This document shows, piece by piece, positions 2,285-38,983 of a stretch of DNA of 64,000 nt (position 1 is the first letter of the stretch; every line of letters starts with the position of its first letter). A model generated the notes under the pieces. That model had not been told where the DNA came from and searched no databases. It worked only from the letters and a program-made list of their open reading frames with translations. The translations under genes and the position numbers were made by a program. Source of the DNA: a phage; the NCBI GenBank assembly GCA_027218345.1, contig GCA_027218345.1_3950.1. One strand, given 5' to 3'.

Positions 2285-2361
2285 TGGTGCTGCTCACAGG
2301 ACTCGAACCTGCATTTCCATCCTTACAAGGGATGTGTAATAGCCAATTATACGAAAGCAGC
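2285..2361 (-). tRNA. tRNA-Thr (anticodon UGU)
   Basis: Encoded CCA, T-loop TTCGAGT, anticodon stem catcc/ggatg perfect, loop CTTGTAA. Confidence 0.6.
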
Positions 2362-2367
2362 TTTATT

Positions 2368-2442
2368 TGGAGCATCCAGAGGGAATCGAACCCTCAACCT
2401 CAGTTTGGAAGACTGTAATTTTCCCGTTTAAACTATGGATGC
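2368..2442 (-). tRNA. tRNA-Gly (anticodon UCC)
   Basis: Encoded CCA, discriminator U, perfect acceptor gcatcca/tggatgc, T-arm GAGGG-TTCGATT-CCCTC, anticodon loop CTTCCAA. Confidence 0.6.
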
Positions 2443-2448
2443 ACTAAT

Positions 2449-2524
2449 TGGTGGAGAAGCAGGGAATTGAACCCTGTACTTAAGTTTGCAAAACTTATGT
2501 TTTAACCATGTAAACTACATCCCC
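2449..2524 (-). tRNA. tRNA-Ala (anticodon UGC)
   Basis: Encoded CCA, G3:U70 wobble in acceptor, D-stem gttt/aaac, perfect anticodon stem taagt/actta, loop TTTGCAA. Confidence 0.65.
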
Positions 2525-2530
2525 AATGTC

Positions 2531-2606
2531 TGGTACAGGTGGAGGGAATTGAACCCATCGTCTTACTGATTAAGAGTCAGCCGCATAACCATTTTGCTAC
2601 ACCTGC
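2531..2606 (-). tRNA. tRNA-Lys (anticodon CUU)
   Basis: Encoded CCA, discriminator A, T-loop TTCAATT, anticodon loop CTCTTAA; T-stem has mismatches. Confidence 0.5.
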
Positions 2607-2613
2607 ATTAATT

Positions 2614-2690
2614 TGGTACACCTAGAGAGATTCGAACTCACACTGAGCAGATTCTAAGTCTGCTGCCTCTACCAGTTGGGCTATAGGTGC
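2614..2690 (-). tRNA. tRNA, class-I shape, anticodon UAG (Leu-type)
   Basis: Encoded CCA, discriminator A, D-loop AACTGGTAGA, perfect anticodon stem gcaga/tctgc, loop CTTAGAA, 5-nt variable region. Confidence 0.5.
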
Positions 2691-2948
2691 ATTAAATCTT
2701 TTTAGAGAACTTCTAAGAACCTAAGCAACAAGGTTCCACAACAAGCTGTAATAACCTTAGAAGCCCTCTAAAAAGACCTAAAAAGGTCTTTACATAGTCT
2801 TGTTTAATCCGGTGACTAGAACCTTTGGAGAGCTTGATATTATCTCTTCTCCGTGACACCTACTAGGTGCTTTATCAGTGTGTACGACAATACACGAGGG
2901 ATACCAAAGCAACATCCGAATGAAGCTTGGCTTTAAAATCTTATTAGG

Positions 2949-3036
2949 CGGTAAGTAAAGGAGTCGAACCCTCACCGTATCTCTACAGTGGCAACTGTTT
3001 TCAAGACAGTTTGGCTACCATTAGCCGCTACCTACC
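2949..3036 (-). tRNA. tRNA-Ser (anticodon UGA), class II; CCA not encoded
   Basis: 88 nt, discriminator G, anticodon stem actgt/acagt with loop CTTGAAA, long variable arm, T-loop TTCGACT. Confidence 0.55.
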
Positions 3037-3049
3037 CCTAATAAGACTT

Positions 3050-3132
3050 TGGCATGGGACGGAGGAGTTGAACCCCTTTGAAACGGTGTTGGAAGCCGTT
3101 GCTCATGTCTTAGAGTCTTAACATCGTCCCAC
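3050..3132 (-). tRNA. tRNA, non-canonical 83 nt, anticodon possibly CCA (Trp)
   Basis: Encoded CCA, discriminator G, acceptor gtgggac/gtcccat, T-loop TTCAACT; D region enlarged, fold uncertain. Confidence 0.4.
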
Positions 3133-3275
3133 ACTATAATTCGAAGCTTACCGTATTATCTCAACACTGTAAAGCCCCTTCTCAGATTATTTACATGTTC
3201 TGGAAAACATGAGATACAGACCACCTCCCTACAGGAAGACCCGCTTAGGTCGTCTAAGTAATCTGCTAACTAAAT

Positions 3276-3357
3276 TGGTCGAGGCGGCAGGACTCGAACC
3301 CGCATACTCCACTTACTCGGTTAACGGCTGTTTAGAAGACAGCTGAGATACGCCCCG
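3276..3357 (-). tRNA. tRNA-Arg-like (anticodon UCU), non-canonical architecture
   Basis: Encoded CCA, acceptor cggggcg/cgcctcg, T-arm GCGGG-TTCGAGT-CCTGC, stem-loop gctgt-CTTCTAA-acagc; no normal D-arm found and about 23 nt before the T-arm. Confidence 0.4.
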
Positions 3358-3561
3358 TAATTATCTTTAAAGACTCTCTTAGAAAGCCCTTAAAGATGCC
3401 CACCTTATTAATCATACCGTGGGCGAGTACGCCAAATTCTTTGATGAGGGGTTGGAAGACCTCACTGGTGTTTAGCCTATCAAGCTACTGCCAGAAAAAC
3501 ATTGTCGTTTGCATTTATTTTAAATTTGCAAAATAGACGCTACGCAACGAAAACTAAGGTT

Positions 3562-3590
3562 ACTATAAAGTAGTCACATCTCAGTGTCAA
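3562..3590 (-). promoter_or_regulatory. sigma70-like promoter candidate inside the tRNA cluster
   Basis: On minus strand TTGACA, 17 nt, TATAGT. Confidence 0.35.
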
Positions 3591-3605
3591 CAACTTTATT
3601 GAAAT

Positions 3606-3683
3606 TGGTACTGTGAGAAGGATTCGAACCTTCTGCCTTTCGGTTATCAGCCGAATGCACATCCATATGTGCTAACCCACAAT
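3606..3683 (-). tRNA. tRNA-Ile (anticodon GAU)
   Basis: Encoded CCA, perfect T-arm GAAGG-TTCGAAT-CCTTC, D-arm gcac-ATATGGAT-gtgc, anticodon stem ttcgg/ccgaa with loop CTGATAA; acceptor pairs only with a 4-nt connector. Confidence 0.5.
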
Positions 3684-3760
3684 TGGAGGTTCAGATGGGA
3701 TTCAAACCCACATTCATAGGGCTTATGAGACCCTTGCATTACCTTATCTGCGACTGAACC
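3684..3760 (-). tRNA. tRNA-Met or Ile2 (anticodon CAU)
   Basis: Encoded CCA, perfect acceptor ggttcag/ctgaacc, T-loop TTTGAAT, anticodon stem agggt/gccct with loop CTCATAA. Confidence 0.55.
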
Positions 3761-3764
3761 ATTT

Positions 3765-3840
3765 TGGTAGAAGTGGAGGGATTCGAACCCATCGCCTTTC
3801 AGATTAAAAGTCTGCCGCATCACCATTCTGCTACACTTCC
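3765..3840 (-). tRNA. tRNA-Lys (anticodon UUU)
   Basis: Encoded CCA, discriminator A, T-loop TTCGAAT, anticodon loop CTTTTAA. Confidence 0.55.
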
Positions 3841-3846
3841 ATTAAA

Positions 3847-3986
3847 TTATCTTTGTAGATAAGCTACCCAGACTTGCTTAAGGTCTGTAGCGATGTGCCT
3901 TTTTGGGTTTAAATCTAGAATTTACCCTTTCACCCTTTGTGGTCGCATACTCACAGGTAAGCTTAATAACTTATCTACAAAGATAA
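3847..3986. repeat. pair of identical 16-bp palindromic hairpins in inverted orientation flanking 108 bp
   Basis: TTATCTTTGTAGATAA at 3847-3862 and its reverse complement at 3971-3986. Confidence 0.6.
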
Positions 3987-4268
3987 TTACCAGACCGTTG
4001 TTTATCATCTTAAGTGCTACCATTACACCAACTCGACATCTGCCGAGTGAAGGAATCGAACCTTCGCCTTTTCTTTACCGAGAAATAGATTGTTTAAGTT
4101 TTGCTGTAAACGGTCTTCTGTAAATTTGTTGAGCCAGACCAAGTTTTAAATTTTTCAAAATTAAATTGGCTTGAAATTTTAAGTAACTTGCTGTATTTGG
4201 TCTTCTGCTCCTTTAAAGGATGCTCGTAAGAACCCTTTAAGGGAGGGGCTAAATAGCCCTCTCAAAAT

Positions 4269-4343
4269 TGGCGAGGTGTGCGAGAATCGAACTCGCGGCT
4301 CAGGAGAGACAATCCAGTATTTTACCCGTCTAAACTAACACCC
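4269..4343 (-). tRNA. tRNA, probable Asp (anticodon GUC)
   Basis: Encoded CCA, discriminator G, perfect T-arm GCGAG-TTCGATT-CTCGC, D-stem gttt/aaat, anticodon loop TTGTCTC with one stem mismatch. Confidence 0.45.
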
Positions 4344-4350
4344 CAAAACC

Positions 4351-4779
4351 CTATGTACCATTTCTTAAGTACTTTTCTTTGCGTCTTGCTGAATTATAGT
4401 ATTTACGCCCTTCAGCATTTTTAGAAAGCCTACAAGCCTCACACCTGCATCCTCTTCTATAACCAGAAACTGTACCATGTTTAATTGGTGTGTACTTCCT
4501 TTCACCAATCTGTTTTGGTCTTGTTGCTTTCGAGTTACAGTGTATGTGGCTATATGAGATGTTATCTAGTGAAAAGAAAAGCTCTTTTGCATTTTCACTA
4601 TGTCTCCACGGAGTCTTATGCTCAATAGAGAAATCATCCCTAGTCATTTCTTTCCCGCACTGAAAACATCTATTTTGATTTGTTTTACATATAAAATCAA
4701 ATAGTAAATCTTTTACTAGCCTGTTTTGTGCAGTTCCTAAACTCATACCAAGCTGTGATTTGTATACTTCATCTCTCAT
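4351..4779 (-). CDS. HNH homing endonuclease
   Basis: HNH/zinc motifs CFQCGKE...IEHKTPW...SHIHCN and C-terminal CxC cluster; embedded in tRNA cluster; internal ATG start preferred over TTG. Confidence 0.65.
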   Translation of the reverse strand: MRDEVYKSQLGMSLGTAQNRLVKDLLFDFICKTNQNRCFQCGKEMTRDDFSIEHKTPWRHSENAKELFFSLDNISYSHIHCNSKATRPKQIGERKYTPIKHGTVSGYRRGCRCEACRLSKNAEGRKYYNSARRKEKYLRNGT

Positions 4780-4802
4780 GACTAAGTATCTCAATAAGTG
4801 TT

Positions 4803-4890
4803 TGGTGTGCCGTGTAGGAGTCGAACCTACCGAGTCTCAATGACAAGGGATTTACAGTCCCCACCGCTACCATCTACGGGATAACGACAC
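4803..4890 (-). tRNA. tRNA-Tyr (anticodon GUA), class II
   Basis: 88 nt, encoded CCA, perfect T-arm GTAGG-TTCGACT-CCTAC, anticodon stem-loop gggga-CTGTAAA-tccct, long variable arm. Confidence 0.6.
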
Positions 4891-4899
4891 ATTTAAATT

Positions 4900-4976
4900 T
4901 GGCGGTTAGTCAGGGATTCGAACCCTGTGCCATTCGCTTAACAGGCGACCGCACATACCTTATGTGCTTCCTAACC
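4900..4976 (-). tRNA. tRNA-Asn (anticodon GUU)
   Basis: Encoded CCA, discriminator G, perfect T-arm CAGGG-TTCGAAT-CCCTG, D-stem gcac/gtgc, anticodon loop CTGTTAA. Confidence 0.55.
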
Positions 4977-5053
4977 TTAATACATTGCCAGACCGTGTTT
5001 TTTCTTTTATCCGCAAAAAGTATTTTGTTGCTGAATACGGTCTTCTGCAAAAT

Positions 5054-5130
5054 TGGAGGCGGGTGCAGGAGTCGAACCTGCCGATACCATGCTAATGAGA
5101 CATGTGAGACGCCCTTTCTCTATACCCGCA
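5054..5130 (-). tRNA. tRNA-Met or Ile2 (anticodon CAU), second copy
   Basis: Encoded CCA, perfect T-arm GCAGG-TTCGACT-CCTGC, anticodon stem catgt/gcatg with loop CTCATTA; T1:C72 mismatch. Confidence 0.5.
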
Positions 5131-5221
5131 ATTCTTAATGACCAGACCAAATCTCTTCTTTGTCCGATTTACCTTCAGATGAATAAGATTAAGTTTGCTG
5201 TAATTGGTCTTCTGTCAAAAC

Positions 5222-5299
5222 TGGCGTTCCAGAAGGGATTTGAACCCTCAAATATCCACTTTGAAAGAGTGGTGACTTTACCATTTTGTCTACTGGAAC
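5222..5299 (-). tRNA. tRNA-Glu (anticodon UUC)
   Basis: Encoded CCA, discriminator G, perfect acceptor gttccag/ctggaac, T-loop TTCAAAT, perfect anticodon stem ccact/agtgg, loop CTTTCAA. Confidence 0.55.
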
Positions 5300-5306
5300 A
5301 TTAATT

Positions 5307-5382
5307 TGGTCTCTGTTGGAGGACTTGAACCTCCGGCCTTACCGCCCCAAACGGAACGCTCTACCAAGCTGAGCTAAACAGA
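5307..5382 (-). tRNA. tRNA-Pro (anticodon UGG)
   Basis: Encoded CCA, perfect acceptor ctctgtt/aacagag, D-arm gctc-AGCTTGGTA-gagc, T-arm GGAGG-TTCAAGT-CCTCC, anticodon loop TTTGGGG. Confidence 0.6.
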
Positions 5383-5548
5383 GATAAACTTTTCAAACTC
5401 TATGTAACCACTTTAACATTATTTTTTAGTGGTTGTCAAGAACTTTTTAAAATATTTTTCAGTATCTTAGAAAAGCTCTCATTTCGTTTCTATGTAGAAC
5501 ATATTAAAGGGTATCAAACACATTGTCAATACCCTTTTTTAAAACTTT

Positions 5549-12742: not shown

Positions 12743-13242
12743 TTTACGAAGAAAGATACAAAATAGATTACCAGAAGACTGGTCATCATACTTCTCTTAG
12801 AGTAACCAAACCGAATGGAGATACCGGTATCATAGCACATTTTGGTGGTGATTATTGGTACGGTACAGGTTGCTTTGAAGGCTACAGTCAAGAATACTTG
12901 AAAGCTTTCTACAGAGACTTTACAAATGACTACAACAGGGTTGTTGACGAGAAGAATAAGTGCATTAAGCATGAACACCATGCCAGAGGTTGTCTGAATA
13001 TTGCTATGGTACTGGTTTTCTTCTTAGCAACATTACTAGCCGTATCAGCAATCAGCTACATAGCTCAAGACTTAACCATTACACAGATTACTGCAAAGGT
13101 ATATGATGTTTGGTACTTGTATGCTGTCCCTTTAGCTGGTATCATCATCTCACTACTAAGATTCAGAGTTCATAAGAAACGACTCAAAGACTCTGAGGTT
13201 AAACTTGAAGAGGTAAGTAAAGAATGCAACCTACAATTATAG
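12739..13242 (+). CDS. hypothetical membrane protein
   Basis: Two hydrophobic helices in C-terminal half; start moved to internal ATG. Confidence 0.45.
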   Translation: MIYEERYKIDYQKTGHHTSLRVTKPNGDTGIIAHFGGDYWYGTGCFEGYSQEYLKAFYRDFTNDYNRVVDEKNKCIKHEHHARGCLNIAMVLVFFLATLLAVSAISYIAQDLTITQITAKVYDVWYLYAVPLAGIIISLLRFRVHKKRLKDSEVKLEEVSKECNLQL

Positions 13243-13318
13243 CTGTATGTGTTCGTTTTGCAATCGCTGAAATGATTAACAAGGCAATCTTGAAAGATGC
13301 CTATGGAGAAACTAAGTA

Positions 13319-13543
13319 ATGATTAAGACACCTGTACCAATTTTTGGATTCCCTTCTATTGAAGAGTTCAAAGTTTATCTTGACAAAAACTTCTACAATG
13401 AGCAGCCTGTTACTCTGCTGAAGAGTGACCTATCAGAGCTTCTTGACATGGTTATCGAGGCAACTTCTGAGAAGGAACCTGAGCAGAAAGCTGAGAAGAA
13501 GACTAGTAAGAAATCCGATAAGAAAACTGAAAAGTCTGAGTAA
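13319..13543 (+). CDS. hypothetical protein with Lys/Glu-rich tail
   Basis: 74-aa ORF. Confidence 0.45.
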   Translation: MIKTPVPIFGFPSIEEFKVYLDKNFYNEQPVTLLKSDLSELLDMVIEATSEKEPEQKAEKKTSKKSDKKTEKSE

Positions 13544-13596
13544 TAACTTGAGGGGTTACTTGATAGCCCCTTTGTAGGAACTTAGAAGGTAGCGAA

Positions 13597-14061
13597 ATGA
13601 AAATTAAAGAAGTAGTTCAAAAAGCAATGCTTAACAACTCAACTAAAGATGAAATGTACAAAGAGATTTGTGATAAGTTGAATTGTTCAAGACATGCTGC
13701 TAAGGTTCTTGTACATTGTTTTATCTGGGAATGCTCAGAGGCTTATATGAAACATATAGCTTTTGAAAGTTCTAACTTACTAGGTGATGTAGAAGCTGGT
13801 GAGAAACTGAAAGAACCTGAGATGAAAACAGTTCCTAAAGTTGGTAATGTATACCGCCTTAAAGACTTCAAGACTGGAAAGATTGTTGCAAAAGGTGTAG
13901 TAGAATTTGTTTACCATGATGGTAAATACCTACTTAAAATATTTGAGTATGATAGCAGATATACACACTTGTGTGGTCTCACATTCTTAGTAACAGAAGA
14001 AGACCTCATTAAGAACAACAACAACAAGTTTGCAGTACCAGATTACCAAGTTTTACGATAA
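13597..14061 (+). CDS. hypothetical protein
   Basis: 154-aa ORF. Confidence 0.5.
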   Translation: MKIKEVVQKAMLNNSTKDEMYKEICDKLNCSRHAAKVLVHCFIWECSEAYMKHIAFESSNLLGDVEAGEKLKEPEMKTVPKVGNVYRLKDFKTGKIVAKGVVEFVYHDGKYLLKIFEYDSRYTHLCGLTFLVTEEDLIKNNNNKFAVPDYQVLR

Positions 14062-14623
14062 TGGTGTGATAGATATGGAAAAAGATAACTTAAAAGAAGT
14101 TGAAGGTAACTATCTAGTACTTGACTGGAATGATATTCGGGAAGCACTATCTAAAGAAAGCCTTGACATACTAGAGCAACTTATCTTCTCAGTACGTCAT
14201 ATCAGAGAAGTTAGAAATGGTAAAGAGCCACTTGAAGGAATCTTTGTAGAGAAGTCTTATCCGTTCTATGAAGACACTTTACAGAAAGTTAAGATGTACT
14301 TTAGACAGAAGAACCGTAAAGTGGTCACTATGGTCTCTCTTGGTGGACAGAGTATGTCTGTGATGGAAGATATCAACCCTAAGAGACCAAGTAAAGGTGT
14401 TTGTATAAAAATCACAGGTCATGAAGAGTATATCTCAGTGGATGACTTTAGTGCATTCTGTAATGGTTCTGCTGTCTTTAATGGGTTTCACTATGATATC
14501 CGAGTGTACCCAATCAAGGGAGATGATATCATGATGCAGGTATTCGATAACAACAACGGATTTACTCATTTTTATCAGACAACCAAGTCATCACTGAAGA
14601 CAGTTCTGGAAACACTGATTTAA
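14030..14623 (+). CDS. hypothetical protein (start uncertain)
   Basis: 197-aa ORF, last gene of plus block, followed by terminator. Confidence 0.45.
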   Translation: MQYQITKFYDNGVIDMEKDNLKEVEGNYLVLDWNDIREALSKESLDILEQLIFSVRHIREVRNGKEPLEGIFVEKSYPFYEDTLQKVKMYFRQKNRKVVTMVSLGGQSMSVMEDINPKRPSKGVCIKITGHEEYISVDDFSAFCNGSAVFNGFHYDIRVYPIKGDDIMMQVFDNNNGFTHFYQTTKSSLKTVLETLI

Positions 14624-14632
14624 AATATCTTA

Positions 14633-14665
14633 AGAGCCTCCTTAATTGGGGGCTTTTTAATTTTT
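14633..14665 (+). terminator. candidate terminator at end of plus-strand block
   Basis: GAGCCTCC...GGGGGCT hairpin then TTTTTAATTTTTAT. Confidence 0.45.
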
Positions 14666-16249
14666 ATAAAATTTATCGGTTGTCCCAACCTCTGGGTCAC
14701 CATCATATGTGAATAAAATATCTACCCTTCTTAACAACCTTCTTAAGCTTACTCTCTATATATATATAGTTATATAGTACTATATAGTATCTTAGTATCT
14801 ATCTAGTGGTCTTAATAGACCCTCTGTATAGCCCTTCTAAATAGCCCTCTAACAAACCTTCTTAACAACCTATACAATCACCTTAACCATCCCTCTACAC
14901 ACTCTTAGAAGCCCCTATACACCTCTTAATCTCTAGGTCAGCTATGTTACCCTCTATAGGTGTTCACTAGGAAATACTAAGCCTCTATATAGACTGTTTT
15001 AACAAACTTAACAGGAATATCTTTACAGACCTTATCTCACAAGGTCTAACACGGTACTAACAAGGTATCTTATAAGCCTGTTTCTACCTGTATTTTTAAA
15101 AGACTGTATAGGTAATTATTCAGAATTTTAAAATTTTTATAAAATAGAGTTGTCAAGTCATTTTTTAGGGTCTTTGAAGGAACTCAAAAATATCTGTAGA
15201 AGATGTATATCTGCTTGGTAGCCCTTAACAGTTCCTTAACACCCCCTTTGCAAAATTTTAAAATATCATTAACAATCTCTTAACAGTTCTCACATCTTCT
15301 TAACAACTCTTCAAAGGTCTTAACAGATTCTTAACAGAACTAACAAGAGCGTAACAGTTTCTTAACAGTTGATACATAGCCTTTACAGATGCTTAACAGA
15401 TGACTAACAAGAGCTATATAGTTAATTTTTAAGGGTTATTTTGTAAAGATAATTAACAAGTTCCTAACAAGTGTTTAATCTTTTTAACAAGCTATTAACA
15501 TGGTCACTATCTCTTCCCTTATTGTTCCCTTCCTCTCTTAGTGACCCTTTAAACATACCTCTTAAAAGCTCTCTATAGCTCTGTATAGCCCCTTTTAAAC
15601 CTCTTCCTAGTATCTACCCCTCAACTGTATGGATAGCTCTTTATAGGGCTTTACAGGGGCTTTAAAGGCTATGCCAAAGGTTCTTACAAGGCTTTTACAT
15701 GGTTGTAACAGAGATTTAACAAGGGGCTAACAAGTATAACTATGTAGGGTTTGTTAAGAAATTGTTAAGAAAATGTTAAGGGGGCTAGCATTTACGTAAC
15801 TTTTAAGCTATCTATCACGTAACTCTATAGTTTCTTTTACGTAACTTTGAAGTAACTTCATAGCCCCTTTTTAGTAGTTCACAAGGAACTAACGAGATAA
15901 TAAAGCTTATAACCTTATAAGATTCTTTTAAGCCTCTATAAAGCCCTGTAAAGAGCTTTTTAAGGTGAGTTAATGCAATCCATTAAGTTAGGTTGATAAG
16001 GCTGTTATAGGGCTTTGTAGAGCGTTTAAGGGGTTGCCCTTCCCTTTCGGGTTATGGGCTTGTATTTAAGTTGATTTGATAAAAGGCTATAGAGTAGACT
16101 ATAGAGTTATTACTTTTTAAGGTCTGATAAAGTTCTGACTTGTTAGGTGGGTTTTAAGATTCTGGAAAGGGATTTGATAGACGTAAAAAAGCCCCATTTA
16201 AGGGGCTGTAAAGGTATCTGGGGCTATTCAGCCCCCGTTAATTGACAAT
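14666..16249. repeat. ORF-free repeat-dense tract (iteron-like arrays)
   Basis: Clusters of TTAACAG/CTAACAAG, ACGTAACT and GTTAAG direct repeats, TATATAG-rich segment, several GC hairpins; no ORF of 60 aa or more. Confidence 0.6.
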
Positions 16250-16780
16250 TTACAGATTTTTGATTGTCTCGTCAATATCTTTTTCAATATCTTTTAAAGT
16301 TTTTTCTAAGTTCTTGATATTGAAAGTTAAGCCTTCACCGATGGTTTTAGCGTAACCGCTAGGACGTGAGTTATATAGTTCGATTTCTTCCACTTCGAAG
16401 AGACTAACCAACTCACCGCTTACATTGTAAGCCATTGAAACAGTGTTTACAGGGGCTTTATAAAACTTGTTCAATGACTTGAGAGAACGTTCATAAGCCA
16501 TTTTATAACTGTTTAAAAGGCTTTTAACGTGTTTGTGAACGTTTTTACACTCATCTAAGTAAAGCCCTAAAAACATCGGGAGAAGTTCCGCTACAGCTTG
16601 CATAAAATGAGAGGCTGCAACGGTTGCAACATTACGACGATGAACGTAATAAGCCCCTTTTTCTGATTTGGTGATTGTTGCAAAGTGTACACCATTACAA
16701 CGAAATTCGTAGGTATCTTTAACAGGCTTAGACATTACAGCATTTGAGCGGATGTAATTGATGGCTTTGAACTTGTTCAT
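16250..16780 (-). CDS. hypothetical protein
   Basis: 176-aa ORF preceded by conserved type-A cassette. Confidence 0.5.
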   Translation of the reverse strand: MNKFKAINYIRSNAVMSKPVKDTYEFRCNGVHFATITKSEKGAYYVHRRNVATVAASHFMQAVAELLPMFLGLYLDECKNVHKHVKSLLNSYKMAYERSLKSLNKFYKAPVNTVSMAYNVSGELVSLFEVEEIELYNSRPSGYAKTIGEGLTFNIKNLEKTLKDIEKDIDETIKNL

Positions 16781-16999
16781 TTTGACTCTCCTAGTTTAAG
16801 GATTTTATTTAGTGGGGAGGTCATCCCTCCCGTTGATTAGTAATTTACTTGTTTTGATATCTGATTGCAAGCAATTTTTTAAGCTTATCTATAAAGAATC
16901 TTTTAAGTTAATCCCTTTTAGATAAACCCCCTCGAACAACATTACCAATGTCAAGGGGCGTTGTCAATACTTTTTTGAAAGTTTTTTGTAAGTTATTGA

Positions 17000-17341
17000 T
17001 TAACTGATGAATATTTTTTCAGGTTTTACATAGCTGATACGTTGGTTTTTTAGCAGGTCATCCCAGATTAGCGCGGCAATATGAGAATAGCCGGATTCAC
17101 GTAAAAGCTTCATTGCTTTACTTCTCGTTTCGAAGCGGCTTGCATAGTACTCACTATTCAGAGTTGTTCTCTTCCCTTCATTGTCTACATGGATAATCTG
17201 CATCACTTGAAAGGGGCTTGTGTCCTCGCCTTTATTCCACTGTTCAAAGTATTTTAGGCACTGCATAGGTGACATCTTATCACTGACCTGAGTTGACCAA
17301 GATGCGCCAGCTTTATCGGTAATTACGGTTACATAAGCCAT
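17000..17341 (-). CDS. hypothetical protein
   Basis: 113-aa ORF preceded by type-A cassette. Confidence 0.5.
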   Translation of the reverse strand: MAYVTVITDKAGASWSTQVSDKMSPMQCLKYFEQWNKGEDTSPFQVMQIIHVDNEGKRTTLNSEYYASRFETRSKAMKLLRESGYSHIAALIWDDLLKNQRISYVKPEKIFIS

Positions 17342-17430
17342 TTTTGAATCTCCAGTTTAGGACTTTATTTAGTGGGGAAGGTCATTCCCTCCCCGTTGAT
17401 TGACAATTTACAGACTTTTATCAGGCTTGT

Positions 17431-17664
17431 CTAGTCTTTTTCAATGATAATTTCATACTGACCATCTACGCTGTCAAAATAGATACCGTCTTCATCTTCT
17501 GTCTTAAAGTAACATTGGATATCATCACTAGCGGGATAGTCTTGCCTTGCTATCTGGCACACTTGAACAGCATTTTCTTTACTCCCTGTAAACTCCTCAA
17601 GCCCTTTAAAATCGCATGAATGACCGTTACAAATAGAAAGGATGAGATAAACGGTTGTAAGCAT
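17431..17664 (-). CDS. hypothetical small acidic protein
   Basis: 77-aa ORF with hydrophobic N-terminus. Confidence 0.45.
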   Translation of the reverse strand: MLTTVYLILSICNGHSCDFKGLEEFTGSKENAVQVCQIARQDYPASDDIQCYFKTEDEDGIYFDSVDGQYEIIIEKD

Positions 17665-17730
17665 GATTTAAGCCTCCTAAAAGCCCCTACAAGGGGCTGA
17701 TTAGTGTTTATAAGGTGATTGCATAGGTTT

Positions 17731-18273
17731 TTAGAAAAAGCTCTTTAAATCCTCTTCTGCAATGTTTCCTGTCAGTGTATCAATGATGTCACAAAAAACC
17801 TGAATACTGTCTGACTGTTGAACACTTTTAGCGAGAAGCTCCAGAGACTCATCAAGATAGTTTAAATTTGGGTTATCCAATGAAGGAAGACAAAAAGGTG
17901 AATACATAGCGTTAAACTCTGTTGTATAGACCTTTTTAATCCAATTTACATCAAAGTACTCTGTAAAACTTGCTACACTCGACATATTATCACAAGAATA
18001 ATCATCATTTAGTTCATCCTCTGGAATATCGAGTTCTAAGATAACAATATTTTGGGTTTTCATCTGGAAGGCCGCCGTAATAGTGGCGTTCCCTAGAGCT
18101 TGCTGGATACCTTCGGATGTTATCTCTTCCTCATCGTCGCCACAGATTTTATTTTCTGGATACACGTAAAAATTGCCGTCCATATCCGAACAATTCCATG
18201 CGCCTGATGGTTTATCACCGTTATTAATCAGGTTGAGGAAATTTTCTTGAGTAGTACCGTGAAAACATTTCAT
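17731..18273 (-). CDS. hypothetical strongly acidic protein
   Basis: 180 aa, very high Asp/Glu content and few basic residues; preceded by type-B cassette. Confidence 0.5.
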   Translation of the reverse strand: MKCFHGTTQENFLNLINNGDKPSGAWNCSDMDGNFYVYPENKICGDDEEEITSEGIQQALGNATITAAFQMKTQNIVILELDIPEDELNDDYSCDNMSSVASFTEYFDVNWIKKVYTTEFNAMYSPFCLPSLDNPNLNYLDESLELLAKSVQQSDSIQVFCDIIDTLTGNIAEEDLKSFF

Positions 18274-18360
18274 TTTTGAATCTCCTAGTTTAAGGATTGA
18301 GTGGTAAAGCTCTTTATCTGGGGCTTACTTTATCGAACTATAAGCCCCTTGTAAAGTGCT

Positions 18361-18609
18361 TTATTTAACTTTCTTTGAGAAAACTAGTTTGACTGCAACT
18401 GTAGGAATCTCGCCAGCAGTTGTAACCAGCATTACTTTTTGAGTAACCAACCTATAGCCGTTCTTTGCAGCGTATGCGGTGAAACGGTTAACATTGTAAC
18501 TATAAGTTTTTGCCGTGTTATCTGGCATGTGGTAAATGAAAGGTTTACCCAAATTTTCTTCTTGTGTCAATAATCTACAGGTATCGGGAATGTTAAAGTA
18601 GTTCATCAT
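18361..18609 (-). CDS. hypothetical protein
   Basis: 82-aa ORF preceded by type-B cassette. Confidence 0.45.
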   Translation of the reverse strand: MMNYFNIPDTCRLLTQEENLGKPFIYHMPDNTAKTYSYNVNRFTAYAAKNGYRLVTQKVMLVTTAGEIPTVAVKLVFSKKVK

Positions 18610-18702
18610 TTTTAGAATCTCCAGTTTAGGATTTAGTGGTAAAGCTCTTTATCTGGGGCTTAAGTTATCAACTTTTAAGCCCCTTGTAAAGTACTTTATT
18701 TG

Positions 18703-18900
18703 TTATTTTTTGACAACTTTTAAAACTGCAAGATAGCCTAAGCAATAAGAATCACCGAAGAGAGTCCTACCCATGAAAGAATCCTCTTTGATATCCTTTG
18801 CAGTGACAGTTTTTTCTACGCCGTTGGAAAGGACTATATCGCCAACTTTGATATCTTTGATGTGTGTAGTTTCAATGGTTAAACCATTAATAATAGCCAT
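18703..18900 (-). CDS. hypothetical protein
   Basis: 65-aa ORF preceded by type-A cassette. Confidence 0.45.
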   Translation of the reverse strand: MAIINGLTIETTHIKDIKVGDIVLSNGVEKTVTAKDIKEDSFMGRTLFGDSYCLGYLAVLKVVKK

Positions 18901-19000
18901 TTTTGAATCTCCAGTTTAGGACTTTATTTAGTGGGGAAGTTCATTCCCTCCCCGTTGATGTGTAATTTAATCTATCTAAAAACCAGTGTCAACAAAATTT

Positions 19001-19405
19001 TTAGAGTTCTGCATAAATTGCATCACAGATATCACGGAAGTCGTGATTAGTCAAATTACGCTGCAACCAAGTGGCGAAAAAGTCAGCGATTGCAAAATTA
19101 GCATCATACTCGACAGATAGCCACACTTTAACAGCAAATCGGAACATTTTCAAATCTAACTCTTTATTCATTACCTTAGATTTGCCTAACATGTCGGACA
19201 TTTCATATTGCGCACCGTCTAGCGTGATACCTGCTGCAACGTCAGCCAATGAATTTTTTACGTTTTCAACGTCTAAAATAACGCTTTGAATCTTTCCGAT
19301 AATGTTGTGCAATGTCTCATCAGGCGCTGATGATGTCATAATGTTGATTCGATTAACGGTCAAACGTGCTTTTAAGGTTGATAATTCACGGTTATTAATA
19401 GCCAT
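19001..19405 (-). CDS. hypothetical protein
   Basis: ORF trimmed to ATG (MAI...) after GGAGAA RBS inside type-B cassette. Confidence 0.5.
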   Translation of the reverse strand: MAINNRELSTLKARLTVNRINIMTSSAPDETLHNIIGKIQSVILDVENVKNSLADVAAGITLDGAQYEMSDMLGKSKVMNKELDLKMFRFAVKVWLSVEYDANFAIADFFATWLQRNLTNHDFRDICDAIYAEL

Positions 19406-19491
19406 TTTTAAGTTCTCCAATTTAGGATTGAGTAGTAAAGCTCTTTATCTGGGGCTTAAGGTATCAACTTCCAAGCCCCCTGTAAAGTACT

Positions 19492-19764
19492 TTACACTAA
19501 ATGCAGTTTTTTACCTTTTACTATAATGTAACTCGATGCGCTATTGCTACATACATCTTGATAAATTCTGCGCAAACGGCCTTCGTAGTGTACTTTCCAA
19601 CTGGTTGGAATCTTTTTACCGTATCCCGTAGCAGTTTTTTGGAGTCCTGCTACTTGCCAATCTAAGATATGTTGTTCAGCTTGTAAATCTTCAAAGTGCA
19701 TCACCCCGTTGATGTAGTGGCGTAGGGTTACATTCAAAGTGCGACCGTTGTTAGTAGTATACAT
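19492..19764 (-). CDS. hypothetical protein
   Basis: 90-aa ORF preceded by type-A cassette. Confidence 0.45.
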   Translation of the reverse strand: MYTTNNGRTLNVTLRHYINGVMHFEDLQAEQHILDWQVAGLQKTATGYGKKIPTSWKVHYEGRLRRIYQDVCSNSASSYIIVKGKKLHLV

Positions 19765-19852
19765 TCTAGAATCTCCAGTTTAGGACTTTATTTAGTGGGG
19801 AAGTTCATTCCCTCCCCGTTGATGTGTAATTTAATCTATCTAAAAATCAGTG

Positions 19853-21547: not shown

Positions 21548-21931
21548 TTATTTGTTAATTTTGAGGATTGTTACATAACCATCACTACCGATGATTTGCG
21601 ACGCTCCAACTTTTTCTACTGAATAGCCCATATTTTCAAGATGATAGACAGCATCATCATAACCATATGCGCCGCCCTGATAACGTCTCTTATCGCATCT
21701 TATCAGGTTTTTCCCACGTCCAGCAAGTGCATTGAGAATAGTTTTTTCGCTTGAAAGCGTACCATCTATCATAGTTGCCGTGTAGTGGTTGATTTTATTC
21801 CCGTTGATATCATACTTAAAATTGAATGCGTGAACAACAATTTTATTCCCTTTAAAATTCTCATCAAGTGACTTCTCCAGTGCGTTGCGAAAGTTGTCTT
21901 TGTTGATGAATTTAGGTGCACGATATGCCAT
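21548..21931 (-). CDS. hypothetical protein
   Basis: 127-aa ORF preceded by type-A cassette. Confidence 0.5.
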   Translation of the reverse strand: MAYRAPKFINKDNFRNALEKSLDENFKGNKIVVHAFNFKYDINGNKINHYTATMIDGTLSSEKTILNALAGRGKNLIRCDKRRYQGGAYGYDDAVYHLENMGYSVEKVGASQIIGSDGYVTILKINK

Positions 21932-22452
21932 TTTTGAATCTCCAGTTTAGGACTTTATTTAGTGGGGAAGGTCATTCCCTCCCCGTTGATGCAAATACTA
22001 GATAACCACGTTCAAAGAGTCAAGAAAAAATTTTAAAAATATTTTTGGCAAAACTGTAATGAAACGGGCGCACACGACTACCACAAAACAGAACACAAAT
22101 CAAGAATTATTTCTCAATCCGCTACAAATTTTTCTCTTGACTTTTGGGGAGAGGGGGAGTAAGAGGGGGAGAGGGGTTGGTCTGGCTCTCTATAAAAACC
22201 TACCTGCACAATCCTAAAATGATTTTTCTTGCCCGACCTGAGTGTGGTCTGCACGTTTTGAAAATGAAAAAGCTCTTTGGAGATTATCTGCACAGTTTGA
22301 AAATGAATTTTCTCTTTGGAGTTCAAAATTCTCTCTACAGATTTCTCTACAGAACTCTACCTGCACAATTCTGAAATGAAAAAGCCCTCCTTACCTGAAA
22401 AATTTACCAGATAAGAAAGGCTTAGGCTATTGTGAATATACTACAGAGTTTC

Positions 22453-23238
22453 TTAGTTCTTTGCGTCTAAGAAGGTAACTTCTGGTGAAGAGAAAACTGT
22501 CTCGATATCCTCATCAGTTCTTGCATAGATATAAGTATCTGCATCACTGCCAAATGTTACTGCAATCCTGTGATTGCTCTTCGACAGGTGGGTAACTAGA
22601 GCGTTACTCAGAGACATCTTTTCAACCGGAGGGTTACTTTGATGTATCTTACCTTTTCTTCGTCTGAAGAGGGTAACTGCGTTATCTGTGAACACTGCTA
22701 CACCTGCAAAGTATTCTGGTTCACAGTAGTTCTTCCAACCTGAGAGTAACTTGTGGTACATCTCTCCTTCATAGACATATAGATAAACATCTACACTCTT
22801 CATCACCTGATTGATGATAACTGTGACGGCTTGAGGGTCAAGTCCATCGATACCTGCACCAATCATAGGTAAACCAACTTTCTTCAACTGATTGACTTCA
22901 CAGTATCTGTTAAGCTGCTTCAAAGATGACTCTAAAGCACTGTATCGGGCATCTTTACCAGTATGAAGTTGGGTGTAAAGGTTAGCTATACGACCTTGTT
23001 TTAAACGTGCTACAGAGAAATTACCTAGTAAATTTTCACAGGGTTTGTGGCGAATGCCACCTGCAAACAGGTAAACTTCTGTGTCAGTATCATACACTTT
23101 TGGATAACGCTTAGAAATAGTTGCTGCAATACCTGCACCCATGAAATTCATACAGTTGCAACCATGACCAATGATGTCAAACTTACCTTTATCAAATGCG
23201 TCAAATATATCGCCATTGATGATTTTTACAATACCCAT
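22453..23238 (-). CDS. macro-domain protein (putative ADP-ribose processing enzyme) with C-terminal extension
   Basis: N-terminal GDIFDA...DIIGHGCNCMNFMGAGIAATI and LPMIGAGIDG resemble macro-domain ADP-ribose binding loops. Confidence 0.55.
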   Translation of the reverse strand: MGIVKIINGDIFDAFDKGKFDIIGHGCNCMNFMGAGIAATISKRYPKVYDTDTEVYLFAGGIRHKPCENLLGNFSVARLKQGRIANLYTQLHTGKDARYSALESSLKQLNRYCEVNQLKKVGLPMIGAGIDGLDPQAVTVIINQVMKSVDVYLYVYEGEMYHKLLSGWKNYCEPEYFAGVAVFTDNAVTLFRRRKGKIHQSNPPVEKMSLSNALVTHLSKSNHRIAVTFGSDADTYIYARTDEDIETVFSSPEVTFLDAKN

Positions 23239-37470: not shown

Positions 37471-37786
37471 CTTGTTGTTCAGGTAAGTTCGCTACGCTTA
37501 CCCCGCTTTATTCAAGCTGCTTACTGTCGCCAGTAAGTCCAGACTATATCTTCTACTTATTTCTAAGTAGCGTACCATTTCGAGTCGCTTGACCCTACAC
37601 CGCTACATTCATCACGGTTAGTCGTTCGGCATTTAGATGTATTCAAACTCATATTCGAAGTTACTTGGCATGTAAGACTCCTATGTTGTATAGTTTCTTA
37701 CATCGTACATCATTTAGCACAGGATTGTCTACTCTTGTAGAGTTTCCCTGTTTAGGCACGTTTTAGATGAGCTATAGAGCTTGTTA
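37471..37786 (-). mobile_element. group I intron (ORF-less) in nrdD
   Basis: 316 nt between exons; 5' exon ends in U, intron ends in G; conserved core similar to T4 td/nrdD introns plus GACUA/UAGUC P7 pairing. Confidence 0.7.
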
Positions 37787-38983
37787 ACCCATCGGCGAAA
37801 TAACCTTGCCAGAACGCTCAAAAGCTTCTGCTACAGCACCATGACCAGATACACTTAAGAAATCTGGATACATCGCTTTAGAGCAACACTCAATAGCTTT
37901 ACTGTACAGGTGACTTTGACAGATATTTTCATCATGTCTCTTCTGGTCATAAATATAAACCAGTTTAGGGAATACAACAGGCTTCTTGCTCTTACCTTGT
38001 CCATTCATACGAACATCTAGGAGAGTACTTGCAATCATGTATTGTAGCCGGTTGTCTTCATTAGACATATCTGAGTCAAGTAAACCAAATGTCAAAGTTG
38101 TGAATGCGAAATCACCACGGCTGCAAGGTACGGTGTTTAGCTTCATTTCAAGTGATTGAAAACCTTGAGTCAATTCAAGCTGTAGCTGCTCCATGACATA
38201 ATTATGGTAATGTTCTTTAGGAATACCATAAGATGCTGCTTTCTCAGCATGGTAACGTAGAGACTTCTTAGCATACGGTACAAGTACCTTATCAATCTCT
38301 GCTAAAGTAAAGCCACCAAATTGCTGTGCAGTTGCTGAAAGAACTACATCACCAATAACCTGTAAGGCTGACAGCACAGACTTTGGTTCACAGTATTCAA
38401 TGCCAGACATTTCAAAGCCACCTTTCAGTACTTTACCAATGTCAAACAAGCAACAGTTAATACCACCAAAAATTAGGTCTCTTAAATCATGGATATAGAT
38501 AAACCCTTTTTCAATGGCTTCAAGTTCCTCTGGTGTTAAGTGGTACTGTTTAAAGATTTCTTTAGTCAGATAACCACGAATAATTGAACCTTTTGTAGAA
38601 ATTAAACTGCTGTCAAAATTAGCGTTTTCTCTGTCACCTAAGAAGAGTGTATCTTTGGTCTTCTGGTAGAGTTCATCCCAATTTTGAGCAACCTCTTTAC
38701 GGTAATTTCTATATGTTGAGTAAGACTCATAAATCTCGTGATTGACTTCTGCCAAAGCACCCTCAACAATACTGTGAATATCATTTACTGAAACGAGTAA
38801 ATTATTCTGCTTAGTGGACTTTACCAGAATCCTCATAAATGCTGACTCAAGAGCTTGGGTAACATCTGGTGGAAGCTCTTTATAACCAACTCTGTTAGCT
38901 GACTTTGTGACTGCTACTAAAACTTTTTTGATATCAGGTTCTTCGAGTGAGCCATTCTTTTTAATAATCTGTACTTTGTTCAT
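37787..38983 (-). CDS. nrdD: anaerobic ribonucleoside-triphosphate reductase, exon 1
   Basis: ORF ends ...ISPMG then in-frame TAA that begins the intron; joins exon 2 to give conserved SPMG-CR. Confidence 0.85.

Follow-up and report, generated by a model that had tools for sequence, protein, structure and literature searches.

In a Felix O1-like phage, a non-coding gap of 460 bases separates two early genes, which raises the question of what this gap does. The original prediction had described it as a possible regulatory or ncRNA locus between two minus-strand genes, marked by a polypurine G tract and imperfect tandem repeats. We analyzed the gap within its surrounding 64-kb stretch of DNA (hereafter, the window), which belongs to a Felixounavirus with 95-96% identity to LMP33/UAB_Phi87. 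The two minus-strand genes were located at the following positions.

21548-21931, minus strand: downstream gene (context), ORF of 127 aa, PHROG 4495, function not assigned.
22453-23238, minus strand: macro-domain gene, upstream (context), ORF with Pfam Macro (2e-6) and PHROG 335 (2e-113).

The upstream gene is syntenic in all relatives examined, L025 included, and its product, labeled 'phosphatase' in relatives, is a homologue of wV8 gp12. The slot of the downstream gene is variable and is occupied by other genes in ASO1A, Mijalis, SUSP1 and KhF2. Only six ORFs, of 30-76 aa and in opposing directions, cross the gap. None of them is conserved across genera in frame, start or length and none matched Pfam or PHROG, which bears out the view that the ORFs are spurious and the region non-coding. 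The 613-bp terminal repeat of SPJ41 mapped to window positions 15217-15785, marking the left genome end, and with SpeI only the 13014-19582 fragment fitted the published end fragments of UAB_Phi87 (PMC4837284), in agreement with the SPJ41 mapping. Since the physical ends are ~6.7 kb away, the gap was rejected as a direct terminal repeat or packaging site. The tRNAs of the window all lie within 99-5383.

The repeats proved to form one family. Two copies of a ~60-bp unit had been described, together with two copies of CTACCTGCACAAT(C/T)CT(A/G)AAATGA. The latter are present at 22198-22222 and 22355-22379. The former are indeed repeats but measure only 35 nt (22248-22282 and 22287-22321), 39 nt apart and with 83% identity, and the '60-bp' and CTACCTGCAC repeats are members of the same family. 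The original prediction was thus confirmed in part, its G tract and repeats being real and its repeats mis-measured. The family consists of four direct units of ~35 nt that share the core TGCAC-N7-AAATGA followed by an A5 or T5 tract; the units (U1 to U4) were defined by repeat, pattern and profile searches.

22199-22231, no strand assigned: U1, CCTGCAC-AATCCTA-AAATGA-TTTTTC-TTGCC.
22248-22282, no strand assigned: U2, TCTGCAC-GTTTTGA-AAATGA-AAAAG-CTCTTTGGAG.
22286-22321, no strand assigned: U3, TCTGCAC-AGTTTGA-AAATGA-ATTTTC-TCTTTGGAG.
22332-22353, no strand assigned: short direct repeat TCTCTACAGA, two copies within the 73 nt that separate U3 from U4, read from the sequence.
22359-22389, no strand assigned: U4, CCTGCAC-AATTCTG-AAATGA-AAAAG-CCCTCC.

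The core matched the window four times against 0.41 matches expected, and at least four matches were found in none of 100 shuffles. A profile search of the window with the units returned just these four (E values from 1e-5 to 6e-8, next best 1.2), and in loci covering the UAB_Phi87 record the box was likewise confined to this locus. The units are spaced at 45/39/73 nt in the window, 45/41/75 nt in Mooglevirus and 39/37/37 nt in the Erwinia phages, where they are strictly tandem at 37-39 nt; the spacing thus varies by genus, and it is not helically phased. The TCTCTACAGA repeat is kept in Felixounavirus and diverged in Mooglevirus. Promoter-like pairs occur within the units (TTGAAA-18-GATTAT in the window, TTGCCA-17-TAAAAT in Panisse), but such -35/-10-like pairs are not conserved between genera, and the units were rejected as promoters.

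Conservation in related phages, a check that had been proposed for this locus, showed the boxes to be near-invariant across the subfamily, Erwinia phages included. Among 44 units from 11 lineages, TGCAC was kept in 43 and AAATGA in 43, and the spacer between the two halves was 7 nt in every one (44/44). The bases after AAATGA were AAA in half of the units and TTT in the other half (22 each). This interchange amounts to a single feature in DNA, an A-tract in either orientation, yet to two different things in RNA. The boxes persist in Panisse, where the macro-domain protein is only 35% identical and third codon positions 37%, and in L025, where the flanking proteins are at 30-44% identity. Compared with Mooglevirus and Suspvirus, the gap as a whole showed 68-70% identity, equal to that of the neighboring gene (67-69%) and higher than that of this gene's third codon positions (50-55%). 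A metagenome scan with a relaxed two-unit pattern returned 100 loci, 13 of which contained real arrays, and the spacing in every one of these was Ounavirinae-like. The pattern also occurs in two 50-nt repeats of L017, a 10-kb contig, but the proteins of L017 are unrelated and terminase genes adjoin the repeats, so the match was ascribed to chance. No other non-coding element found in the early region examined is as strongly conserved as the box array. Because the boxes occur nowhere else in the window and yet are near-invariant across the phage subfamily, we regard the gap, on sequence comparison, as a real, conserved, non-coding and cis-acting control region of Ounavirinae phages.

The polypurine tract behaved differently from the boxes. 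It is present at 22146-22176 (GGGGAGAGGGGGAGTAAGAGGGGGAGAGGGG), where 22 of 31 nt are G; the next-best 31-mer of the window has 16.

22144-22178, plus strand: polypurine G tract, G-quadruplex motif and homopurine mirror repeat, in a lineage-variable 53-nt module (motif and mirror scans).

On both strands of the 64 kb it is the sole G3+N1-7 x4 motif, and any such motif appeared in 10 of 200 shuffles. The mirror repeat at 22144-22178 is perfect over 16+16 nt (TTGGGGAGAGGGGGAG-TAA-GAGGGGGAGAGGGGTT) and is kept at 12-14 of 14 positions in SUSP2, wV8 and Mooglevirus. Most Felixounaviruses (the main clade) have, in place of the G module, an unrelated, C-rich sequence of exactly the same length (53 nt) between the -35 block and U1, so that the geometry is fixed. 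The replacement was rejected as an inverted G module, since in neither orientation did it align better than shuffles. With the boxes intact beside an unrelated replacement, the G tract is dispensable. The original prediction had stressed this tract; it is statistically striking, but its functional weight does not hold in view of the main clade. We consider it a separate, lineage-specific module that the element does not require and that is predicted to form a G-quadruplex or triplex. Like promoter motifs of the G-quadruplex/H-DNA type, the tract fits the G3+N1-7 x4 rule, forms a perfect homopurine mirror repeat and overlaps a promoter-like element at its spacer and -10; in contrast to them, the module has given way to ordinary sequence in the main clade, where the remainder of the element is intact.

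Transcription signals flank the array on both sides, as listed below.

21932-21991, minus strand: 60-nt leader with hairpin GGGGAGGGAATGACCTTCCCC and ribosome-binding site (self-BLAST, alignment, wV8 'DR_6' annotation).
21995-22023, minus strand: leftward sigma-70 promoter TTGACT-17-TAGTAT for the downstream gene (scans of the window, L014 and Mijalis; ASO1A annotation).
22015-22145, no strand assigned: inverted repeat I1, arms 22015-22034 and 22126-22145, 20 nt, 85% complementary (repeat search).
22075-22103, minus strand: candidate second leftward promoter, TTGATT-17-TAGTCG, weak -10 (read from the sequence).
22083-22145, no strand assigned: near-invariant block with two of three (A/G)TCAAGA / TCTTGAC -35-like elements and A/T tracts (alignment of 22 sequences, three genera).
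22137-22165, plus strand: candidate rightward promoter P(+), TTGACT-17-TAAGAG (read from the sequence).
22372-22423, minus strand: intrinsic terminator of the macro-domain gene, 17-pair stem 22423-22382 followed by a T tract (terminator scan).

The terminator closes the long operon from rII to the macro-domain gene and stands on one side of the box array. It is likewise annotated in wV8, KhF2 and ASO1A and was found in L014 and Panisse; its 3' arm varies between genera, with the stem kept. Its T tract and descending arm coincide with the A5/GCCCTCC part of U4. The hairpin has a T tract on the minus strand only, the plus-strand tail being UAGGCUAUUGUG, without a U tract. On the other side of the array, the promoter cluster heads a block of small leftward early genes. 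The leftward sigma-70 promoter is preceded by an A/T-rich tract (22024-22050), and the 60-nt leader is found in four copies in the window (17342, 18901, 19769 and 21932; self-BLAST) with 98-100% identity. The arms of I1 are two back-to-back -35/UP-like elements. We infer a second leftward promoter at 22075-22103 from sequence only; the same place in Mooglevirus holds TTGACT-17-TAGTTG or TATTCG. As for P(+), its -35 (22137-22142) is good and, together with the block upstream, does not vary among 22 sequences of Felixounavirus, Mooglevirus and Suspvirus. Its -10 lacks the final T, and the promoter scan accepted neither this element nor its main-clade equivalent, which has TAGCCT as -10. The equivalent in the Erwinia phages (Kolesnikvirus), TTGAC(C/G)-18-TATACT, matches at 10 of 12 positions and was accepted by the scan; its hexamers are invariant, its spacer is variable and the next 75 nt are invariant, so that it evolves like a promoter. 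A rightward promoter into the array appears convincing in these Erwinia-phage relatives only.

As for the function of the array, we tentatively read the boxes as DNA-level binding sites for a conserved protein at the early-region boundary. We give this somewhat less than even credence, but it was the best reading, and an ncRNA was its main rival. Each box, made up of TGCAC, exactly seven A/T-rich bases, AAATGA and an A- or T-tract, in direct, iteron-like repetition, would be bound by one slowly evolving, sequence-specific protein, either of the host or of the phage core. The array stands between the operon terminator and a cluster of host-type early promoters, with the G tract flanked by the conserved -35-like block on one side and the first box on the other; the bound protein may insulate or tune the early promoters or organize the DNA at the boundary. 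We counted in support of DNA sites the uniqueness of the boxes, their conservation and its depth, the A-tract in either orientation, the fixed geometry, the position and the lack of an RNA fold. Counted against them were the unphased, genus-variable spacing and the common orientation of the units, from the promoter-like element to the hairpin; the Kolesnikvirus promoter with its 75 invariant bases is equally or more compatible with an RNA product, or with a DNA process that depends on transcription. To our knowledge, none of the motifs of CRP, FNR, Fur, IHF, Fis, sigma-54, LexA, Chi, KOPS or T4 RegA fits both invariant half-sites. In the early/late switch of phi29, p4 and p6 sites lie between divergent promoters. 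The likeness is architectural only (an intergenic region, divergent host-type promoters and several candidate sites for one regulator), and here no late genes lie rightward.

The main rival is a small plus-strand ncRNA gene, which we consider possible but doubtful. It would run from a promoter with its -35 at 22137-22142 through the variable 5' module and the four boxes to an end at the hairpin 22382-22423, and the resulting RNA of ~250 nt would act, through its single-stranded UGCAC-N7-AAAUGA motifs, as a multivalent sponge or decoy that captures a conserved ribonuclease or RNA-binding protein. Bipartite motifs without structure are also recognized by proteins that bind single-stranded RNA. 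In Kolesnikvirus a strong, conserved promoter fires into the array ahead of the 75 invariant bases, and in all lineages the units are co-oriented between the promoter position and the hairpin, in the manner of a small RNA gene; the invariance of the P(+) -35 and its upstream block and the lack of a conserved ORF also favor such a gene. However, the -10 elements of the window (TAAGAG) and of the main clade both fail the promoter scan, the hairpin lacks a U tract on the plus strand, and the A5/T5 interchange is hard to account for in RNA. Tests for RNA structure were also unfavorable. Searches of the gap against Rfam 15 and for tRNA/tmRNA (ARAGORN) gave nothing at gathering score; the best match at E<=10 was at chance level, with 17.6 bits against a threshold of 50. 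The plus-strand fold was not more stable than that of shuffles (z-score +1.1), and the plus-strand consensus fold reached only -7.6 kcal/mol (RNAalifold) with compensatory changes at 0 of 26 pairs. The minus-strand fold had a z-score of -3, which is due to the terminator together with I1, the inverted repeat of the promoters. The proposal of a regulatory or ncRNA locus therefore stands in its first half, in the general sense of a terminator, a promoter cluster and a subfamily-wide box array; its second half is neither upheld nor overturned, with no Rfam match, conserved fold or covariation on the plus strand and a P(+) -10 that fails here.

The ncRNA layout is also like that of type III antitoxin loci, in which a promoter is followed by imperfect tandem repeats with an A stretch and a terminator; these antitoxins have 2-5 tandem units of 31-62 nt, and TenpI repeats are up to 35% different (PMC12283969, PMC3401426). 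With such arrays (ToxI, CptI, TenpI and the phage pseudo-ToxI decoy) the locus shares the order of promoter-like element, repeated units and hairpin, and the Erwinia-phage units (39/37/37 nt) match the tandem spacing of 31-62 nt. It differs from them in having no toxin gene, no pseudoknot or conserved pairing and no Rfam match, and in the irregular spacing of the window units (45/39/73 nt). A bacterial counterpart of the array was not found when one genome per species was scanned (two unrelated matches). A type III antitoxin mimic was rejected on the lack of a toxin gene, a pseudoknot and a bacterial counterpart; what lies downstream is the convergent macro-domain gene. An antisense action of the boxes or the variable module on host RNA was also rejected, there being no complementarity to E. 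coli genomes beyond one 21-mer (E=8). The same held for a CRISPR-like array, for which 5,426 E. coli genomes gave only one 21-nt prophage match (E=8) and the spacing is irregular.

A replication origin at the array is unlikely. The boxes would then serve an initiator as iterons, or would load a T7-like primase-helicase, with the promoters providing transcriptional activation and the G-rich non-template strand favoring an R-loop primer. T7 and T4 origins depend on transcription, and the lambda ori comprises four 19-bp repeats with flanking A-tracts. The locus resembles iteron arrays (lambda ori, P1 oriR, SPP1 oriL) in its genome-unique cluster of 4-5 direct repeats of ~20 bp, each with an A/T tract, adjacent to promoters. 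The A/T-rich tract at 22024-22050 is in the top 0.85% of 40-bp windows, and the phage has a T7-type replisome with no annotated initiator. The least stable DNA, however, lies elsewhere (14.7-15.4 kb and 51.9 kb, with minima at 14.7, 15.1 and 51.9 kb), and the best 100-bp window of the gap ranks only at 6.6%. Gene orientation and GC skew diverge at ~52 kb, between replication genes, so that an origin at 22 kb would place ~30 kb of genes head-on to the fork. An R-loop primer fits poorly as well: the predicted P(+) start lies at the end of the G tract, which would therefore be absent from the RNA, and the G-rich module is C-rich in the main clade. Furthermore, iterons normally co-vary with their initiator, whereas the boxes are invariant across genera, have no associated initiator gene and are irregularly spaced at 37-75 bp, away from both the least stable DNA and the orientation switch.

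Still less probable is a pause in DNA entry like that of T5. The boxes, as degenerate DnaA boxes or as sites of another membrane-associated protein, would hold the first ~8% of the genome and thereby give the left-terminal early genes priority in expression. In T5 the first-step-transfer DNA makes up 7.9%, and at its end lies a conserved region of untranslated repeats whose DnaA boxes include TTATGCACA; the DnaA model is a proposal of Davison (bioRxiv 10.1101/866236). The distance from the left physical end to the array is 6.7-7.2 kb (~7.5-8.2% of the genome), and the array is at the inner edge of the left-terminal early block. The genes of this block are all small and leftward, and are under strong promoter-leader cassettes that recur. 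Like the T5 injection stop signal (repeat region 3), it thus consists of conserved untranslated repeats ~8% from the left end that bound small, leftward early genes of the host-takeover type, and its boxes overlap the DnaA consensus, with TTATGCACA among the T5 boxes. The Erwinia-phage units, CTATGCACA or TTATGCACG, match TTWTNCACA at 8/9 positions. The match is poor in E. coli and Salmonella phages: the window units agree with the DnaA box at 6, 6, 7 and 6 of 9 positions, the first three being wrong, and the equally invariant AAATGA half-site is not accounted for by DnaA. Moreover, the boxes are single and direct, whereas those of T5 are paired 3 bp apart inside long inverted repeats (IRC/IRD-type), and the terminal repeat is ~0.6 kb here rather than 10 kb. 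Two-step entry in Felix O1-like phages was not found in the literature.

We think it very improbable that the gap encodes one or more small proteins, with the repeats as a repeated peptide. Annotators did call ORFs in it, namely wV8 gp13 on the minus strand and Phi87_49/50 or a 76-aa ORF (22144-22374) on the plus strand, and the Felixounavirus spacings of 45 and 39 nt leave one plus frame open across U1-U3. These annotations conflict on strand and frame, however, and the frame is broken by the 41/75- and 37/37-nt spacings of other genera; with indels of 2 and 4 nt between units, the set of ORFs is different in every genus, and the longest plus-strand ORF of Mijalis reads U1 and U2 in another frame. 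The ORFs start at TTG or GTG without a ribosome-binding site and have no PHROG or Pfam match, the boxes are invariant at all three codon positions, and units outside any ORF are equally conserved. Since many database records annotate spurious proteins in the gap, their removal is advised.

That the locus has no function of its own, and consists of decaying duplications of the distal terminator part beside a slippage-prone purine tract, is scarcely credible: U4 is fused to the terminator, the A5-type units resemble the minus-strand terminator T tract and the G tract is dispensable, but 11 box positions near-invariant over 44 units, in lineages with saturated synonymous sites, contradict this reading.

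Returning to the array as a protein-binding element, the temporal control of Felix O1 was described as unknown in its genome paper (PMC3185647), and neither a description of the box element nor a transcriptome of the Felix O1 group was found in the literature. Felix O1 and its relatives, classic phages for typing, are now used in biocontrol and therapy. It is conceivable, though rather doubtful, that the array is a previously unrecognized cis-element that engages a conserved host factor at a fixed point ~8% into the genome. If so, it may serve as a T5-like entry checkpoint, at which the remaining genome waits for expression of the left-terminal takeover genes, or alternatively as a nucleic-acid decoy that titrates a host defense or housekeeping protein, in the way of the aba element of BstA prophages (DNA) or of pseudo-ToxI (RNA). 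Because the element outlasts the divergence of the neighboring proteins, it would mark an interaction that the phage cannot afford to change. Knowing the partner would open a way into early regulation, or into a host dependency that is common to phages of Escherichia, Salmonella, Citrobacter, Shigella and Erwinia.

The window derives from a Felix O1-like myovirus (Ounavirinae, Felixounavirus). Over 1.4 kb round the element, 231 phage records matched, with identities of 96% to LMP33/LMP25 and 95% to UAB_Phi87. Elsewhere in the window, 24 tRNA genes lie at 99-5383, all on the minus strand, and two group I introns exceeded the Rfam gathering score. By position in the UAB_Phi87 annotation, 37520-37894 (-) falls in the split nrdD region with a homing endonuclease, and 54249-54531 (+) within or close to the DNA polymerase gene. 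The gap between the two minus-strand genes is 521 bp long and, read leftward along the minus strand in the direction of these genes, is organized as follows.

Organization of the gap and its flanking genes
22453-23238, minus: macro-domain gene (Pfam Macro, 2e-6; PHROG 335, 2e-113; annotated as 'phosphatase' in relatives)
22423-22382, minus: intrinsic terminator of 17 pairs, ending the macro-domain gene
22359-22389: box unit U4
22286-22321: box unit U3
22248-22282: box unit U2
22199-22231: box unit U1
22144-22178: G/mirror module
22083-22145: nearly invariant block
22137-22142, plus: rightward -35-like hexamer TTGACT
22103-22098, minus: leftward -35-like hexamer TTGA(C/T)T
22024-22050: A/T-rich tract
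22023-21995, minus: leftward promoter TTGACT-17-TAGTAT from the promoter scan, with the second leftward -35-like TTGA(C/T)T hexamer at 22023-22018
21932-21991, minus: 60-nt leader with a hairpin and ribosome-binding site, the last element before the next gene
21548-21931, minus: ORF for a 127-aa protein, function unassigned

The A5/GCCCTCC portion of U4 forms the T tract and descending arm of the terminator. The three -35-like elements in the gap read TCTTGA(C/T)T with A/T tracts, and the outer two form a 20-nt inverted repeat, I1.

The original prediction regarded the gap as non-coding and its crossing ORFs as spurious, and this was upheld. A minus-strand gene '13' of 54 aa is called there in the wV8 record, two plus-strand ORFs in UAB_Phi87 and other plus-strand ORFs in Mijalis and Panisse; the SUSP1, Sf17 and ASO1A records have no gene call. 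Protein coding was rejected because none of the ORFs in the gap is preserved between genera in strand, frame, start and length, units spaced 41, 75 or 37 nt apart disrupt the frame that is open in Felixounavirus, and the gap ORFs gave no PHROG or Pfam match. In Mijalis, the longest plus-strand ORF takes U1 and U2 in another frame and then enters the macro-domain gene in antisense. Most start codons are TTG or GTG and lack a ribosome-binding site, the boxes are invariant at all three codon positions, and conservation is just as high in units that no ORF covers. The ORFs at 22059-22217 (+), 22144-22374 (+) and 22214-22366 (-), represented in GenBank by the hypothetical proteins Phi87_49/50, wV8 gp13, Mijalis 118 and Panisse 00107, are almost certainly annotation artefacts.

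The two repeat units described as ~60 bp long are real, but each measures 35 nt (22248-22282 and 22287-22321; offset 39 nt, 83% identity). The two further copies beginning CTACCTGCAC were recovered as predicted, at 22198-22222 and 22355-22379, and belong to the same family, all four copies sharing the core TGCAC-N7-AAATGA. This core occurs four times in the window against 0.41 expected, a count reached by no shuffle. A search of the window with a 44-unit profile returned only U1-U4 (E 1e-5 to 6e-8; next match, E 1.2), and exact box matches in the loci covering the UAB_Phi87 record were restricted to this locus. A 21-nt exact identity with U1 (TACCTGCACAATCCTAAAATG; BLAST E=8) lies at 2501-2521 of an E. 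coli ETEC-2265 lambdoid prophage locus (L039) as one copy immediately before an A-tract and bidirectional terminator adjoining antiterminator gene Q, a box-plus-hairpin layout like that of U4. The same 21-mer was found in many prophage contigs (also loci L148-L164), and may reflect chance or old exchange.

Comparison with related phages, one of the checks proposed with the original prediction, showed near-invariant boxes in 44 units from 11 lineages. TGCAC was kept in 43 of the 44 units, as was AAATGA; the A/T-rich spacer is exactly 7 nt in every unit, and the tract after the box is AAA in one half (22/44) and TTT in the other (22/44). Felixounavirus, Suspvirus and Mooglevirus all have the gap in alignable form, and in the Erwinia Kolesnikviruses a 100-nt piece corresponding to the units still aligns. 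Spacing is 45/41/75 nt for the four units of Mooglevirus and SUSP1, 39/37/37 nt for the four strictly tandem units of the Erwinia phages, and 38/36/112/36 nt for the five units of L025, a distant metagenomic relative whose flanking proteins share only 30-44% identity with those of the window. Against Mooglevirus/Suspvirus, identity over the whole gap is 68-70%, equal to that of the adjacent gene (67-69%) and far above its third codon positions (50-55%). In Panisse the adjacent gene has fallen to 37% at third positions and 35% in protein, yet the boxes are intact. L025 (600-1030) also carries nine TGTTAA-containing repeats in a 700-bp gap upstream of its units, and an exact Chi octamer, GCTGGTGG, between its two unit clusters.

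The predicted G tract was confirmed at 22146-22176, where 22 of 31 nt are G (second-ranked 31-mer in the window, 16). It provides a canonical G-quadruplex motif, the only one in the 64 kb whichever strand is read (any motif arose in 10 of 200 shuffles), and lies at the centre of a perfect mirror repeat of 16+16 nt, TTGGGGAGAGGGGGAG-TAA-GAGGGGGAGAGGGGTT, at 22144-22178. Perfect mirror repeats of this type are capable of intramolecular triplex formation. Both characters are retained in wV8, SUSP2, SUSP1 and Mooglevirus; Chi-like 7/8 matches (GATGGTGG / GGTGGTGG) occur inside the module of Mooglevirus and SUSP1. At every locus examined in the EC6-like main clade of Felixounavirus, an unrelated sequence of exactly 53 nt takes the place of the 53 nt from the -35-like block to U1; it reads TTGACT-17-TAGCCT, is C-rich close to U1, and aligned to the G module in neither orientation better than shuffles. 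This replacement, with length and both flanks held, indicates that the G module is dispensable or interchangeable. On these comparisons, the conserved part of the element is the four-box array with the promoter-like block, and excludes the G tract.

We tentatively read the array as a set of DNA sites bound by protein, with a role in regulation or as a boundary. Consistent with this are the rigidly spaced halves of the bipartite motif, the exchange of A5 for T5 (a single feature in double-stranded DNA but two distinct ones in RNA), the retained length of the exchanged 53-nt module, and the weakness of the rightward promoter in the window phage and main clade. In the window the candidate is TTGACT-17-TAAGAG, with spacer and -10 supplied by the G tract itself; its -10 lacks the final T, and the promoter scan rejected it.

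A non-coding RNA with four single-stranded binding motifs is a somewhat less likely alternative, favoured by units co-oriented in all lineages between the rightward-promoter position and a hairpin, and by a Kolesnikvirus promoter (TTGAC(C/G)-18-TATACT) that scores 10/12, with invariant hexamers, a variable spacer and 75 invariant nt following. Of the original prediction, a regulatory locus is broadly supported and an ncRNA is a candidate. Evidence against a structured RNA is consistent: there was no Rfam match, the plus-strand fold was no better than shuffles (z = +1.1), and RNAalifold gave -7.6 kcal/mol with zero compensatory pairs. In the Kolesnikviruses (Panisse locus L008, 991-1100; alignment A4), divergent promoters lie back to back 35 bp apart, and the hairpin after the 75 invariant nt shows one compensatory change (GCCGGA/TTCGGC vs ACCGGA/TTCGGT); phage ST-3 has lost half of it by deletion.

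A replication origin at the array is possible but not favoured. The array resembles iterons in form but lacks an initiator or polarity support, DNA stability is lowest at 14.7-15.4 and 51.9 kb, and gene orientation and skew diverge at ~52 kb between replication genes. Positions ~51900-52100, the least stable DNA in the window at the 100-200 bp scale, coincide with the gene-orientation and GC-skew switch between the primase-helicase and DNA polymerase sides, which makes them a better origin candidate.

The most interesting DNA-level function considered, a T5-like DNA-entry checkpoint, is improbable. A distance of 6.7-7.2 kb (~8%) separates the array from the left end, and a dozen small leftward genes form a block whose inner edge it occupies; first-step-transfer DNA of T5 comprises 7.9% and terminates in a repeat region that is untranslated, conserved and furnished with DnaA boxes, TTATGCACA among them (bioRxiv 10.1101/866236). 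Erwinia-phage units (CTATGCACA or TTATGCACG) match the DnaA box at 8/9 positions, but window units at only 6-7/9, and DnaA leaves the AAATGA half-site unexplained. Despite the similar position, the array lacks the paired boxes and long inverted repeats of the T5 stop-signal region. Type III antitoxin loci are alike in layout, but toxin gene and pseudoknot are absent here, and no host counterpart was detected in one genome per bacterial species. For iterons, T5 elements and type III antitoxins alike, there are defining tests that the array fails.

The left-end block genes are driven by repeated strong promoter-leader cassettes. Four leader copies, 98-100% identical, lie at 17342-17400, 18901-18960, 19769-19824 and 21932-21991, each preceded by its own TTGAC promoter. 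Phage KhF2 carries an additional ~440-bp gene cassette precisely at a leader of this kind, suggesting that recombination at leaders shuffles the cassettes, as with the promoter-stem-loop cassettes of T4-type phages.

A terminal repeat or packaging site at the array was rejected, because the mapped ends lie elsewhere. UAB_Phi87 has SpeI end fragments of 4322 and 2819 bp and a 608-bp repeat (PMC4837284), compatible only with record fragment 13014-19582; its unique length of 87,061 plus 608 gives the published 87,669 bp. Salmonella phage SPJ41 has an exact terminal repeat of 613 bp that corresponds to window 15217-15785, within a ~1.6-kb gene-free, very A/T-rich region. This placement agrees with the SpeI end-fragment sizes, and the interval is probably the direct terminal repeat, where the genome physically ends. 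In JN225449.1 (UAB_Phi87; loci L003/L004), the initial 542 bp recur at the record end in the tRNA region, which looks like an assembly overlap distinct from the experimentally mapped repeat.

No published description of the boxes and no transcriptome of the Felix O1-like group was found in the literature; the Felix O1 paper describes temporal control as unknown and gives direct repeats other than these (PMC3185647), and repeats are not a topic of the wV8 paper. When two tandem units were searched for, a set with one genome for each bacterial species produced only two chance matches, IMG/VR yielded only contigs of Ounavirinae size and a single unrelated one, and the 13 genuine arrays from metagenomes were all of this type. 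The element is real, statistically solid, deeply conserved and non-coding, and flagging it was justified. Because of the scan results, the array, without a detected bacterial counterpart, is a hallmark of this phage group.
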